Below are positions 8,516-11,570 of a DNA stretch of 18,682 nt, piece by piece; the first letter of the stretch is position 1; each line of letters starts with the position of its first letter. Origin of the DNA: a virus. Taxonomy: Duplodnaviria > Heunggongvirae > Uroviricota > Caudoviricetes. Location: IMG/VR virus record IMGVR_UViG_2778261570_000014; one strand, written 5' to 3'. A program made the translations under genes and the position numbers. The notes beneath the pieces were generated by a model that was given only the letters and a program-made list of their open reading frames with translations, did no database searches and was not told the origin of the DNA.

Positions 8516-9337
8516 TTAATAATGGTTAGCCATCCATTCAGATCTAATTGATGGGATAAACTCTCTATTGAGAAAGGGGACGTACAGTGTGGTTGTCACA
8601 TCTGCACCCTCCTTAGCGTTTTTGCAATGTTGCGGAGGCAGGATCAGTCGGCTTGAGCCTCTCTCAATAGACATTTTCAGGCCGTGGCGTAGGTCTTTTT
8701 GCATAAGCTGTATGCGAGCCACAAGCGGGGTAAATTCGGTTTCAAGCGCCATGCTTTCAATGATGTCAAAGCGTCGGTTAGCGGCCTGCGTGAAGTCCTC
8801 CGGATCGTCTTCAAGCGCCGTGCATAAAGCGAGTTCAGCAATTCGCATCCGTGCTACGCCAGCACTGTATTCGGGAGTTTTCATATCAGGAAGTGACGCT
8901 CGCATTCGTTCAAGGAGTTCCGCGCCTTTCCCGGTTAATGGTTTAAGTATCCAGTCAGTTGGTACTCCATTTACTGGTACGTTGGTTTTCACGTAAGGAG
9001 GTACAGTGAGTATTTCTACTGTTTGGGCCAGGTCGCTCAGGTTAATATCTGCATGATGCGTATTACCGCAGTGACTGCACTCATAGGAGTAGGTCATTAC
9101 TGCATCGGGGCGCGAATTAACAAATATCCACCAAAGAGCAGTTCTGCGGTCCTGAACTGTCCAGTTAGCACTGTCGTTAATTTCACCATCCTGCATAGAG
9201 TTAAGGTACTCTGTAGTCGTTGCCTCATCTTCTGCCGGGTTCAGGTCAGAATATTTCAGCGCATCCTTCACGGTAGGGGCGTGGAACTGAATTTCTGTCT
9301 CAGGACGGGAAGGCAATGGGAATTTTGGAATGTTCAA
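8516..9337 (-). CDS. Hypothetical protein (273 aa) with a C-x2-C...HH...N motif; divergently oriented from repA
   Basis: ORF with apparent TTG start at 9337 and a GGAGG Shine-Dalgarno 5 nt upstream; first in-frame Met is about residue 47. Contains YECSHCGNTHHADINL. Function unknown. Confidence 0.5.
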   Translation of the reverse strand: MNIPKFPLPSRPETEIQFHAPTVKDALKYSDLNPAEDEATTTEYLNSMQDGEINDSANWTVQDRRTALWWIFVNSRPDAVMTYSYECSHCGNTHHADINLSDLAQTVEILTVPPYVKTNVPVNGVPTDWILKPLTGKGAELLERMRASLPDMKTPEYSAGVARMRIAELALCTALEDDPEDFTQAANRRFDIIESMALETEFTPLVARIQLMQKDLRHGLKMSIERGSSRLILPPQHCKNAKEGADVTTTLYVPFLNREFIPSIRSEWMANHY

Positions 9338-9442
9338 TTATTCCTCCGAAAAGCAGGTATCTGTTCATTTTCCAGAGGATAGGGAGTGTGTGATTTGCGA
9401 TGGGGATTGAATGAAGATCTTTGCCGGTCGAGAAGCGATTAT

Positions 9443-9461
9443 TGAGGGTGATTTTTACACC
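9443..9461 (+). promoter_or_regulatory. Inverted iteron copy upstream of the origin, probable RepA operator
   Basis: TGAGGGTGATTTTTACACC is the reverse complement of the iteron consensus with two mismatches. Confidence 0.5.
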
Positions 9462-9479
9462 TTAAGTGACGCTACTCAC

Positions 9480-9488
9480 ATATCCACA
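9480..9488 (+). promoter_or_regulatory. DnaA-box-like site (ATATCCACA, 8/9 match to TTATNCACA)
   Basis: Seen in sequence directly next to the AT-rich tract and iterons, the usual Rep_3 origin layout. Confidence 0.45.
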
Positions 9489-9545
9489 GAGTATTTTTAT
9501 AAACCTTTTTCCATTTTTAATCCTTTTTAGATCCTTTTTAGGCGT
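9489..9545 (+). promoter_or_regulatory. AT-rich tract with short phased CCTTTTT-type repeats, candidate DNA-unwinding element
   Basis: CCTTTTTCC, ATTTTTAA and TCCTTTTTAG (twice, 11 bp apart) between the DnaA-box-like site and the iterons. Confidence 0.45.
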
Positions 9546-9583
9546 CGCTGGAGCCAGTAGTGGCGCGGGCTGTAGAGGAGGCT

Positions 9584-9701
9584 GGTGTAAGATTTGCCCT
9601 CAATTAAATACGATCGGTGTAAGATTTGCCCTCAGAAGGTGTAAGATTTGCCCTCAAAAGGTGTAGTAATTGCCCTCAAAGTGGTGTAAAAATTGCCCTC
9701 A
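9584..9701 (+). repeat. Iteron array: five direct 19-bp repeats (consensus GGTGTAAGATTTGCCCTCA) upstream of repA
   Basis: Copies at 9584-9602, 9616-9634, 9638-9656, 9660-9678 and 9683-9701. The first three are identical; copies 4 and 5 differ at 2-3 positions. Spacing 32, 22, 22, 23 bp. Confidence 0.85.
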
Positions 9702-9725
9702 CCATTTGAAGGATCACACAGGGTT

Positions 9726-10481
9726 ATGAACAGAGCGGAATTAACAGCAAAAGCCGTCAGCCTGATTGAGTCAGCGACACCTATTAGTCGTAGTCTGGCA
9801 CAAGCCAATGAGATCACGGAGGCTGCTTATCACCTGACTCGCGACCAAAAGCGACTGTTGTTTATTGTGGTGGGAAGACTTCGCTATGCTTCTAAGGATG
9901 GCGTTCTTGGTTCAGGTGCCTGTGAGTTGACGGTCAACGAATATGCAGAGATGTATAATTTGCCCTCTGCTGAAGCCAGCAAGGATATTCGTAAGGCCAT
10001 TTCAGGGCTTAGCGAGAAGAAAGTTACGATATATAACCCTGATGAATCGACCGAATCAGAAGACAGTTATGAGTCTTATCCCTGGATGATTAAGGATGCC
10101 TATTCACCACGGCGCGGGACTTACATTATTCATCTTAATCCATATCTCATGCCGTTTTTTACTCTGCTTGATAAGAGATTCACAAGGCTGAATTTTACCG
10201 AAGTATCTCGCCTTACAAATCCTTATTCTATGCGGCTTTATGAGTCCTTATGCCAGTACAGGAAGGATGATGGAAGCGGCTTTGCCATACTTGGCGTCGA
10301 ATGGATGCGGGAGCGTTATGGGTTACCAAAAAGCTATCAGCGGTATGCCGAATTTAAGAGAAGTTTTTTAACGAAGGCTGTAGCAGAGATTGAAAAAAAT
10401 ACAAAAATGAAAATAGTCTTCTCAGAGGTGACGGAAGGCGGCAAAGTTACCAGGATAAAATTTACCTATCAGCAGTCTTAA
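9726..10481 (+). CDS. repA: Replication initiator RepA, Rep_3 family (iteron-binding)
   Basis: 251 aa from ATG 9726 (the ORF track starts at an in-frame TTG at 9693 inside iteron 5). Flanked by iterons; resembles pSC101 RepA from memory (LTRDQKRLLFIVVG..., NPYSMRLYESL..., C-terminal KVTRIKFTY). Only gene on the plus strand in a minus-strand cluster. Confidence 0.85.
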   Translation: MNRAELTAKAVSLIESATPISRSLAQANEITEAAYHLTRDQKRLLFIVVGRLRYASKDGVLGSGACELTVNEYAEMYNLPSAEASKDIRKAISGLSEKKVTIYNPDESTESEDSYESYPWMIKDAYSPRRGTYIIHLNPYLMPFFTLLDKRFTRLNFTEVSRLTNPYSMRLYESLCQYRKDDGSGFAILGVEWMRERYGLPKSYQRYAEFKRSFLTKAVAEIEKNTKMKIVFSEVTEGGKVTRIKFTYQQS

Positions 10482-10772
10482 GGGCAATTTTTACACCCCT
10501 CTCAAGGTGTAGAATTTGCCCTTAACGATCGGCAATTGAGGGTAATTTTTACATCTTAATTGCATGTATCTTGTTATTAGCAAGTTGTGTTTTTATATAA
10601 CGTATTGATATGTAAGGATTATGTAAAAAACGCCCTCAACCAATATCGTGCGTATCGTGCATTCTTATTGCGCTTTTTTATTATCATTCACTGTGTTAAC
10701 TGATTGATATTATTGAAATATGTAAAGAATGCCTTCATTGCAGATGGATTGATGATGTAAAAAATGCCCTCA
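10479..10772 (+). repeat. Downstream iteron cluster: at least six iteron-like sites, mixed orientation and degenerate, in an AT-rich region
   Basis: Inverted copy 10479-10497 overlapping the repA stop, direct 10506-10524, inverted 10537-10555, and degenerate direct copies at 10621-10638, 10720-10737 and 10754-10772. No ORF in this region. Confidence 0.7.
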
Positions 10773-10862
10773 AAATTGCGCTACCTTCCCTACCCGCTAT
10801 CGTTGAGGTCGTGGGTGCTGACGGGAAATGAGCAACCCTCCAGCACACATAATTAAAGCTAT

Positions 10863-11570
10863 TCAGAATTTGATCACTCCACTCACAGCCCCCTTTAACG
10901 CGCTTGTAGCCATGCCAGCGGCACCGTTGACCAAAGCAGAAACACCTGAGCCTGCGGATGTGTATTTCTGGAAAGTGATTGGATATGACAAGAACTCTGA
11001 CACCTGGTCTCGTGAGCGGGTGATTTCCCCAAGTTGAGTGGGGAATACGCGCATTTCCTCTTCCAGTTCTTTACCGCCATCCTGAGTTACCCGGTAGAGC
11101 CGGATCTTCATTAGATATTCAGGAGGAAGGTTTATTGTTCCGTCCGGGTTTGTCACGCGGGAACGACGCTCTTTGAACCAGTTCATGATCTTGCCGTCTT
11201 CGGTATCCCTTACGGTCATCGTGACTGGTCCGGCGGTGACGTAGGTTGGCTTGCTGAACTCTACGCTACCTATCACCTTGTTTTCTGTCTCGATATTTCC
11301 GCTGCTGTAGGTGATATCCTTCACGAACATATCGAAACCGTTCAGACCGTCCACTTCAACCGTCCACTGCCATCCCTGGGCGTAACGAATACGCATAGCG
11401 GCAGCAACAATATTTTTCCCGTAGGCAATATCGCTGCTGTAGTTCCCACTTACCCCGCCGCCGGATATTGCTTTATCCAGAATGTCGCTAATGAGGTTGC
11501 TGGTGAATGATTTTGTGTTAAATGACAGTGCGGTGGTCAACGTTCTGCCAACGCTGCTGAAAATACTCAC
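10863..11570 (-). CDS. Hypothetical virion or tail protein (235 aa)
   Basis: Co-oriented with the tail genes; apparent GTG start at 11570 with GGAGG upstream. No motif recognised. Confidence 0.5.
   Translation of the reverse strand: MSIFSSVGRTLTTALSFNTKSFTSNLISDILDKAISGGGVSGNYSSDIAYGKNIVAAAMRIRYAQGWQWTVEVDGLNGFDMFVKDITYSSGNIETENKVIGSVEFSKPTYVTAGPVTMTVRDTEDGKIMNWFKERRSRVTNPDGTINLPPEYLMKIRLYRVTQDGGKELEEEMRVFPTQLGEITRSRDQVSEFLSYPITFQKYTSAGSGVSALVNGAAGMATSALKGAVSGVIKF

Follow-up and report, generated by a model that had tools for sequence, protein, structure and literature searches.

What is the function of the AT-rich, non-coding DNA that directly follows the initiator gene repA in the 18,682-nt window analysed here (the window being the whole stretch of DNA at its full length)? 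A preliminary description, made from the letters alone, had recognised in this region a second cluster of iterons and had compared it with the incA copy-number-control locus. It had further suggested that a palindrome at the repA stop codon could serve as a RepA dimer site and, in the RNA, as a hairpin ending the repA transcript. We followed up these proposals by examining the setting of the cluster, the number and conservation of its sites, the properties of the palindrome and the relationship with the control loci of the plasmids F and P1.

The replicon and its second iteron cluster

Over about 1.6 kb around the cluster, the sequence shares 98.8% identity with Escherichia phage D6. The record of this phage places the replicon between two groups of P1-type virion genes, one made up of pmgB and sit and the other of tub, pmgC and bplB. 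Therefore, the window belongs to a D6-like, P1-type phage-plasmid. The replicon region matches 120 plasmid records, and 77 plasmids of E. coli, Shigella and Salmonella, mostly about 80-97 kb in size, are at least 99% identical to it; a scan of IMG/VR yielded near-identical copies only and hence added no divergence. In all the public records inspected (D6 and five plasmids), the D6-type replicon carries no annotation beyond the rep gene, and no description of the downstream cluster was found in the searchable literature, the D6 genome paper lying outside that search. One article says only that the rep gene is "associated with iteron sequences" (PMC6799933), while the D6 group is missing from the common plasmid typing databases according to a recent survey (bioRxiv 10.1101/2025.09.12.675607).

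The features of the replicon are collected in Table 1. The product of repA contains the Pfam domains Rep3_N (E = 2.9e-29) and Rep3_C (E = 9e-16) and matches RepE, the initiator of the F plasmid, both as the PDB chain 1rep (E = 1.4e-73) and as the IncFIA protein, with which it shares 51% identity (E = 1e-87) and the length of 251 aa. The origin is located at the core upstream of the gene, whose ATATCCACA is the sole DnaA-box-like site (at most one mismatch) in the replicon. The five direct iterons are spaced by 22-23 bp, except for 32 bp after the first one, and it is presumably with them that the downstream cluster pairs by handcuffing or looping. The inverted iteron beyond the origin shows no variation among the six aligned D6-like sequences and is absent from the Pantoea and Erwinia relatives. 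As for the repA promoter, a sigma-70 scan was empty in and near the origin iterons, and manual trials gave no convincing candidate.

Table 1. Features of the replicon in the window. Scores refer to the matrix built from the five origin iterons.
Feature	Position	Strand	Score (bits)	Remarks
Inverted iteron, far side of origin	9442-9461	-	23.1	TTGAGGGTGATTTTTACACC
Origin core	9480-9545	+		DnaA-box-like ATATCCACA at 9480-9488, then AT-rich stretch with repeated CCTTTTT
Five direct origin iterons	9584-9702	+		Starts at 9584, 9616, 9638, 9660 and 9683
repA	9726-10481	+		251 aa, Rep3-family initiator, protein expected to bind the cluster; stop codon TAA at 10479-10481
Iteron-like site within repA	9950-9969	+	17.8	GATGTATAATTTGCCCTCTG
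d1	10478-10497	-	27.4	TTAAGGGCAATTTTTACACC; inverted relative to the origin iterons; includes the repA stop codon; left arm of palindrome
d2	10506-10525	+	26.0	GGTGTAGAATTTGCCCTTAA; right arm of palindrome
d3	10536-10555	-	22.7	Inverted; 28.8-33.2 bits in relatives
Putative IHF site 1	10598-10610	-		TATCAATACGTTA, perfect match to WATCAANNNNTTR; 9 nt before d4
d4	10620-10639	+	14.4	TATGTAAAAAACGCCCTCAA; direct, degenerate; 17-22 bits in relatives
Putative IHF site 2	10697-10709	-		TATCAATCAGTTA, perfect match to WATCAANNNNTTR; 9 nt before d5
d5	10719-10738	+	6.0	TATGTAAAGAATGCCTTCAT; direct, most degenerate; 15.0 bits in pEF-4, MINF_7C and EC361
d6	10754-10773	+	23.1	Direct; last in the cluster

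The cluster was delimited with a 20-nt matrix derived from the five origin iterons only, which was scanned over both strands of the whole 18.7-kb window. Six sites, d1 to d6, were found downstream of repA in the order - + - + + +. The top score outside the replicon, on either strand, is 10.9 bits, and in 1000 shuffles of positions 10482-10862 the maximum score averaged 1.2 bits and its 95th percentile was 7.3. A second iteron cluster 3' of repA, as claimed in the preliminary description, is thus recovered far above chance by a matrix that knows nothing of it, and its first member is indeed an inverted iteron that holds the stop codon. The near-perfect palindrome formed by d1 and d2 is likewise real: 18 of the 20 positions of its arms are complementary, and the gap between them is 8 nt, which differs only trivially from the 9 bp given earlier. 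All four of the further degenerate copies announced in AT-rich non-coding DNA are present. The GC content between 10500 and 10750 is 29-34%, as compared to 46% for the window; no open reading frame of more than 38 aa lies wholly within the cluster region, and the small ones found there are neither credible nor conserved. The spacing of the sites is irregular, the direct ones being 99 and 35 bp apart. No DnaA-box-like site (at most one mismatch) occurs in 10482-10862, and the only hits of an Rfam scan of 9000-11200 were eukaryotic ones at chance level. A single iteron core of P1 type is found at 10836-10850, outside the cluster.

One more site recognised by the matrix lies inside the initiator gene, at 9950-9969. 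It falls in the best-conserved 21-nt stretch of repA relative to the Pantoea and Erwinia homologues (95-100% nucleotide identity vs. a mean of 62% for the gene), and the third codon positions of this stretch are 75-88% identical, as compared to about 42%. The intragenic iteron-like site is common to Pantoea sp. pAPP145_3 (L009), Erwinia aeris (L010) and the metagenomic sequence L034, and was not detected in the metagenomic sequence L031.

Conservation of the sites and plasticity of the array

The conservation of the cluster was assessed in an alignment comprising D6, a relative of 96% identity and three lineages that are about 84-90% identical (E. fergusonii pEF-4, MINF_7C and EC361). Downstream of repA this alignment consists of six conserved islands, which coincide with the six sites. 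Compared with the three diverged lineages, the sites are 88% identical overall (d1 95%, d2 93%, d3 87%, d4 82%, d5 85% and d6 85%), whereas the spacers are only 45% identical and identity falls to 40% beyond d6 (10774-10862). This difference between sites and spacers indicates that the six sites are under purifying selection. Even d5, a poor match to the matrix in this window, is a conserved island in the diverged relatives. Moreover, the order, the orientation and the spacing (within 1 bp) of the sites are the same across the D6-like lineages. The six islands and their preserved arrangement argue that the cluster is functional DNA, and a product neither of chance nor of decay.

More distant relatives have RepA proteins of 78% (L031, in a different genomic context), 71% (L034) and 60-63% identity (Pantoea and Erwinia). 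On the origin side they are uniform: Pantoea, Erwinia, L031 and L034 have five direct iterons each, of near-identical sequence and mostly with 22-bp spacing. The downstream array, on the other hand, ranges from a single site to more than 20. Erwinia has 8 sites, all inverted and about 42 bp apart, and Pantoea more than 20, almost all inverted, the first one overlapping the stop codon in both cases. In L031 the array alternates (- + - + - + -), while L034 combines a lone downstream site, over the stop codon, with three inverted sites that precede the origin. Every relative examined (F, Pantoea, Erwinia, L031 and L034) has an inverted iteron located at the rep stop codon or immediately 3' of it. 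Judging from these comparisons, the inverted site at the stop codon is the constant element of the RepE-like clade and the number, orientation and spacing of the other sites are plastic; the tight palindrome and the order - + - + + + are specific to the D6 lineage.

The palindrome and the putative IHF sites

The d1/d2 pair and its centre-to-centre spacing of 28-29 bp are conserved in all D6-like lineages, while the 8-9 nt of the spacer vary in sequence between them. The two arms are full-length, divergent iterons located at the 3' end of repA, with about 15 bp between their GGTGTA ends, which are innermost. Rep-dimer operators have half-iteron arms at the rep promoter, where they are recognised by the same initiator; those of pSC101 and pPS10 are inverted repeats. 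Like d1/d2, these operators and that of F repE are inverted repeats built of iteron sequence. It is conceivable on this ground that d1/d2 is a RepA-dimer operator regulating repA from the 3' end of the gene, all the more as the pair constitutes a good two-fold symmetric site with a conserved geometry and Rep3 initiators bind inverted repeats as dimers (PMC13028717). However, the repE operator of F (IncFIA), AGTGTGAAAATCTTAAAGTCTGTCACACT, overlaps the promoter and consists of convergent half-iteron arms with their TGTGA motifs outermost and about 20 bp apart, whereas the d1/d2 arms are found some 750 bp 3' of the repA start codon, are neither convergent nor halved, and individually score like origin iterons. 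In addition, a rigid two-fold dimer would be unable to fit both polarities. We regard such an operator as distinctly improbable, and the earlier proposal of a RepA dimer site at the palindrome does not find support.

At the RNA level, the same symmetry generates a hairpin that begins at the stop codon and has a predicted stability of -36 kcal/mol (z = -6.8), a value that none of 200 shuffles attained. The stability and the position of this structure, together with the lack of a strong canonical terminator elsewhere downstream, are what one would expect if it acted as a transcription terminator or as a 3'-end stabiliser of the repA mRNA. This interpretation is nevertheless rather unlikely. An intrinsic (Rho-independent) terminator combines a stem-loop with an immediate T-run, and here only the stem is present: the tail that follows it is AACGATCGG / AACGATCGGCAATTG, without a T-run, and the hairpin was not reported by the terminator scan. 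Furthermore, the mismatches in the arms move from lineage to lineage (positions 7 and 10; 7, 8 and 19; 8 and 10) and are not compensated, and a palindrome is missing from the corresponding place in the F, Pantoea and Erwinia relatives. Given the uncompensated mismatches and the free sequence of the spacer, the conservation of d1/d2 is explained by two protein sites alone. The suggestion that the hairpin ends the repA transcript is thus not borne out, although the predicted structure may cause some pausing or give some 3'-end protection. A weak stem followed by T6 at 10657-10673 exists in this lineage only and is not conserved, and no conserved canonical terminator emerged when the window and two relatives were scanned.

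Both d4 and d5 are preceded by a perfect match to the IHF consensus. Site 2 and d5 constitute a 41-nt unit that repeats site 1 and d4 at a distance of 99 nt. The window contains only 3 such matches, where 1.07 are expected; when it was shuffled 200 times, at least 3 arose in 19 cases. The two sites are better conserved (79% for site 1 and 82% for site 2) than the spacers at 45%: MINF_7C and EC361 retain the consensus of site 1, from which pEF-4 departs by one mismatch, and that of site 2 is perfect in all three diverged lineages. On this short consensus, IHF is predicted to bind at both putative sites. More speculatively, the bends that it would introduce before d4 and d5 may help the cluster to pair with the origin.

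Relationship to F incC and P1 incA and the role of the cluster

Two well-known loci offer themselves for comparison. At the IncFIA locus of F, four direct iterons (TGTGACAAATTGCCCTCA) come after DnaA boxes and an AT-rich stretch; then follow the repE promoter, which carries an inverted-repeat operator, repE itself and five iterons, all inverted, the first of which starts 2 nt past the stop codon. The likeness to the present replicon is extensive: in both, the DNA 5' of rep carries direct iterons beside a DnaA box and AT-rich sequence; in both, a second, non-coding cluster begins at the stop with an inverted iteron; and the iterons of both share the half TTGCCCTCA. Here too, the initiator is a Rep3 protein homologous to RepE, the repeats are of the origin-iteron class (five sites of 14-27 bits, with d5 at 6 bits), the first of them, d1, is inverted at the stop directly 3' of rep, and the cluster is not itself an origin, having neither a DnaA box nor a regular 22-bp array. 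There are also differences. The five repeats of F incC all oppose the origin iterons, while here there are six in mixed orientation, including a tight divergent palindrome, and three of the six are oriented as the origin iterons, so that the layout is no simple copy of that of F. Moreover, in F the iterons are set apart from repE by about 95 bp that hold a promoter and a dimer operator, as compared to only 23 nt between the last origin iteron and the repA ATG here, and F incC has no IHF-consensus site by eye where the present cluster has two putative ones. Because RepA is homologous to RepE, the iterons are related and a site lies at the rep stop in all relatives, the cluster at 10478-10773 is the homologue of F incC.

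The control locus incA of P1 (IncY), also carried by a P1-type phage-plasmid, follows the same logic, with origin iterons (incC) 5' of repA and nine control iterons 3' of it. The repA-proximal iteron abuts the stop codon and the orientation is mixed (3 plus 6); by this analogy, mixed iteron orientation is not unusual in itself. However, the P1 iteron, ATGTGTGCTGGAGGG, is unrelated in sequence, and the sites of the present cluster do not resemble it; the proximal control iterons of P1 are direct and form no tight palindrome, whereas the first site is inverted here. Membership of the cluster in the P1 incA group was rejected on account of the unrelated iterons and of the initiators, P1 RepA having no significant similarity to the RepA encoded here (E = 0.057); for this latter reason P1 incA is an analogue only. 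The incA-like assignment of the preliminary description therefore holds as regards the type of locus, a copy-number control, which is supported by the selection on the sites, the homology to RepE and the inverted iteron at or after the stop, and fails as regards the family.

What the homologous locus does is known. F incC negatively regulates copy number and determines incompatibility; its deletion raises copy number, an excess of it in trans blocks replication from oriS, and RepE has been proposed to mediate a loop that joins oriS to incC (PMC13028717). By homology, the cluster is most probably the negative-control iteron locus of a RepE-type (Rep3) replicon, to which RepA monomers would bind, and which would limit copy number by titration and by pairing with the origin. 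In such a mechanism, RepA monomers would occupy the six sites, as homology with F predicts, and the bound cluster would draw the initiator away from the origin. It would also pair with the five origin iterons, in cis by looping over about 0.8 kb and in trans by handcuffing sister plasmids. As the copy number rises, initiation would be blocked, and this would keep the prophage at low copy and define its incompatibility.

Three further explanations of the whole cluster were weighed. Its layout, - [AT-rich] + + +, resembles that of the origin, - [DnaA box, AT-rich] + + + + +; in addition, positions 10535-10562 share 89% identity with 9441-9468, and there is also a resemblance between 10587-10606 and 9491-9510, both at an offset of about 1095 nt. 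The cluster could thus be taken for a second or degenerate duplicated origin that mirrors 9442-9702. Yet the DnaA-box-like site is missing, the direct sites do not have the 22-bp spacing, and the similarity beyond the iteron is lost in the diverged relatives, while the real origin core is nearly invariant in the D6-like alignment, which makes a duplicated origin extremely unlikely. A decaying relic without present function is scarcely credible either. Degeneration is visible in d4 and d5, and a D6-like plasmid, L007, has kept five of the sites as an orphan copy beside a different replicon, with d4 and d5 fused by a deletion; this indicates that the presence of sites alone is no proof of their current use. 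However, the L007 arrangement is found in 2 records only and was therefore treated as a recent relic rather than as a sign that the sites act in the absence of their cognate RepA, and decay is at variance with sites that remain nearly twice as similar as their spacers across three lineages, in unchanged order and orientation. Finally, the genomic position deserves attention. In P1, tub and pmgB belong to one late operon and are separated by 14 nt, whereas in D6-like elements the replicon is inserted between them, antisense to the late operon, so that the cluster might do more than control copy number. Loaded with RepA, and with its palindromic pair at the repA stop codon and arms bent by IHF, it could be a roadblock or insulator between the convergent repA and late-operon transcription and couple plasmid maintenance to the state of lysogeny or lysis; for example, late transcription would strip RepA from the sites and shut off the plasmid mode of replication control. 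We consider this very improbable. The P1 late promoter pattern taken from the annotated LP23 (AAGTGACTT-N4-TANNNT) gave 16 matches against 16.9 expected, none of them near pmgB or the cluster.

As a negative-control locus of the incC type, the cluster is an ordinary kind of element, previously unannotated, with lineage-specific details, and it leaves the current understanding of iteron control unchanged. Its assignment matters because D6-like phage-plasmids occur widely among E. coli, Shigella and Salmonella, and a RepE/incC-type replicon leads to testable predictions on their copy-number control and incompatibility. It also defines a minimal replicon, at about 9440-10775, for use in vectors or curing cassettes. 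The comparison shows, moreover, that within one clade of initiators the control array varies freely in number and orientation, while the single site adjacent to the stop codon stays fixed.

Iteron-like sites in repA and around the origin

The iteron-like site inside repA coincides with the most conserved 21-nt stretch of the gene in the comparison with the Pantoea and Erwinia homologues, whose RepA proteins are 60-63% identical. Nucleotide identity at this site is 95-100%, as compared to a mean of 62%, while identity at third codon positions is 75-88% vs about 42% elsewhere. An intragenic site of this type is also found in L034, the relative with a 71% identical RepA. The high identity at this site suggests that selection acts on the DNA itself.

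Beyond the DnaA box and the AT-rich core lies an inverted iteron that does not vary among the six D6-like sequences aligned. It has no counterpart in the Pantoea and Erwinia relatives, and L034 carries three inverted sites at the equivalent place. Upstream of pmgB, an invariant block stands out amid otherwise variable DNA and contains the half-iteron-like sequence GTGTGTGATTTGC.

Iteron-related features of the window (bits: score against the 20-nt matrix built from the five origin iterons alone)
Feature	Position	Strand	Remark
Invariant block, GAGGATAGGGAGTGTGTGATTTG	9378-9400		upstream of pmgB
Inverted iteron	9442-9461	-	far side of DnaA box and AT-rich core
Iteron-like site	9950-9969	+	inside repA, 17.8 bits
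P1-type iteron core, ATGTGTGCTGGAGGG	10836-10850	-	exact copy (15/15)

A P1-type iteron core beyond the D6-type cluster

Between the cluster of D6-type iterons downstream of repA and the tub stop codon (10863) lies an exact copy of the RepA iteron core of phage P1 (IncY). Each of the 14 iterons annotated in P1 incA and incC differs from this 15-mer at no more than three positions, and the flank of the copy (ATAATT.AA.GC) is similar to that of P1 incA copy 3. D6 and YZ3-11 also carry the core, and E. fergusonii pEF-4 has it as a pair of inverted copies; among the D6-like sequences compared, MINF_7C, EC361 and L007 lack it. The core probably remains from a past recombination with a P1-type replicon.

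Replaced and rearranged replicons

L007 (NZ_CP085065.1, 1100-2760) is a D6-like plasmid whose origin and repA have given way to another Rep3 replicon, with iterons TTGACTATGTGCGA and DNA about 77% identical to a replicon present in roughly 400 other plasmid records. Five D6-type downstream iterons are retained, beginning in approximately the final 14 nt of the former repA, and d4 and d5 are fused by a deletion of about 100 nt. This arrangement is seen in only two records.

In the YZ3-11 plasmid (NZ_CP127005.1, 496-950), a record additionally typed IncY, a 53-nt deletion between repeats leaves three of the five origin iterons, and an IS5 transposase gene occupies the position of pmgB upstream. 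An 11-kb contig (CALWLV010000256.1) labelled as a MAG of 'uncultured Roseburia sp.' encodes a RepA with 100% identity and carries the complete set of iterons in the same layout; almost certainly, this contig comes from an Enterobacteriaceae phage-plasmid and was mis-binned.

Position of the replicon in the late operon

In the IncFIA locus L002, the two arms of a 106-nt inverted repeat (900-1005 and 2387-2492, 82% complementary) flank the ori2-repE-incC module of that F-type plasmid on both sides.

In the window, the entire plasmid replicon (9338-10862) is flanked by pmgB and tub. A search for a P1-type late promoter motif, bearing on pmgB/sit expression in D6-like phages, found none. In P1, pmgB and tub are 14 nt apart within the same late operon, whereas in the D6-like phages the replicon lies between them; the D6-like replicon is therefore an antisense insertion into the late virion operon.
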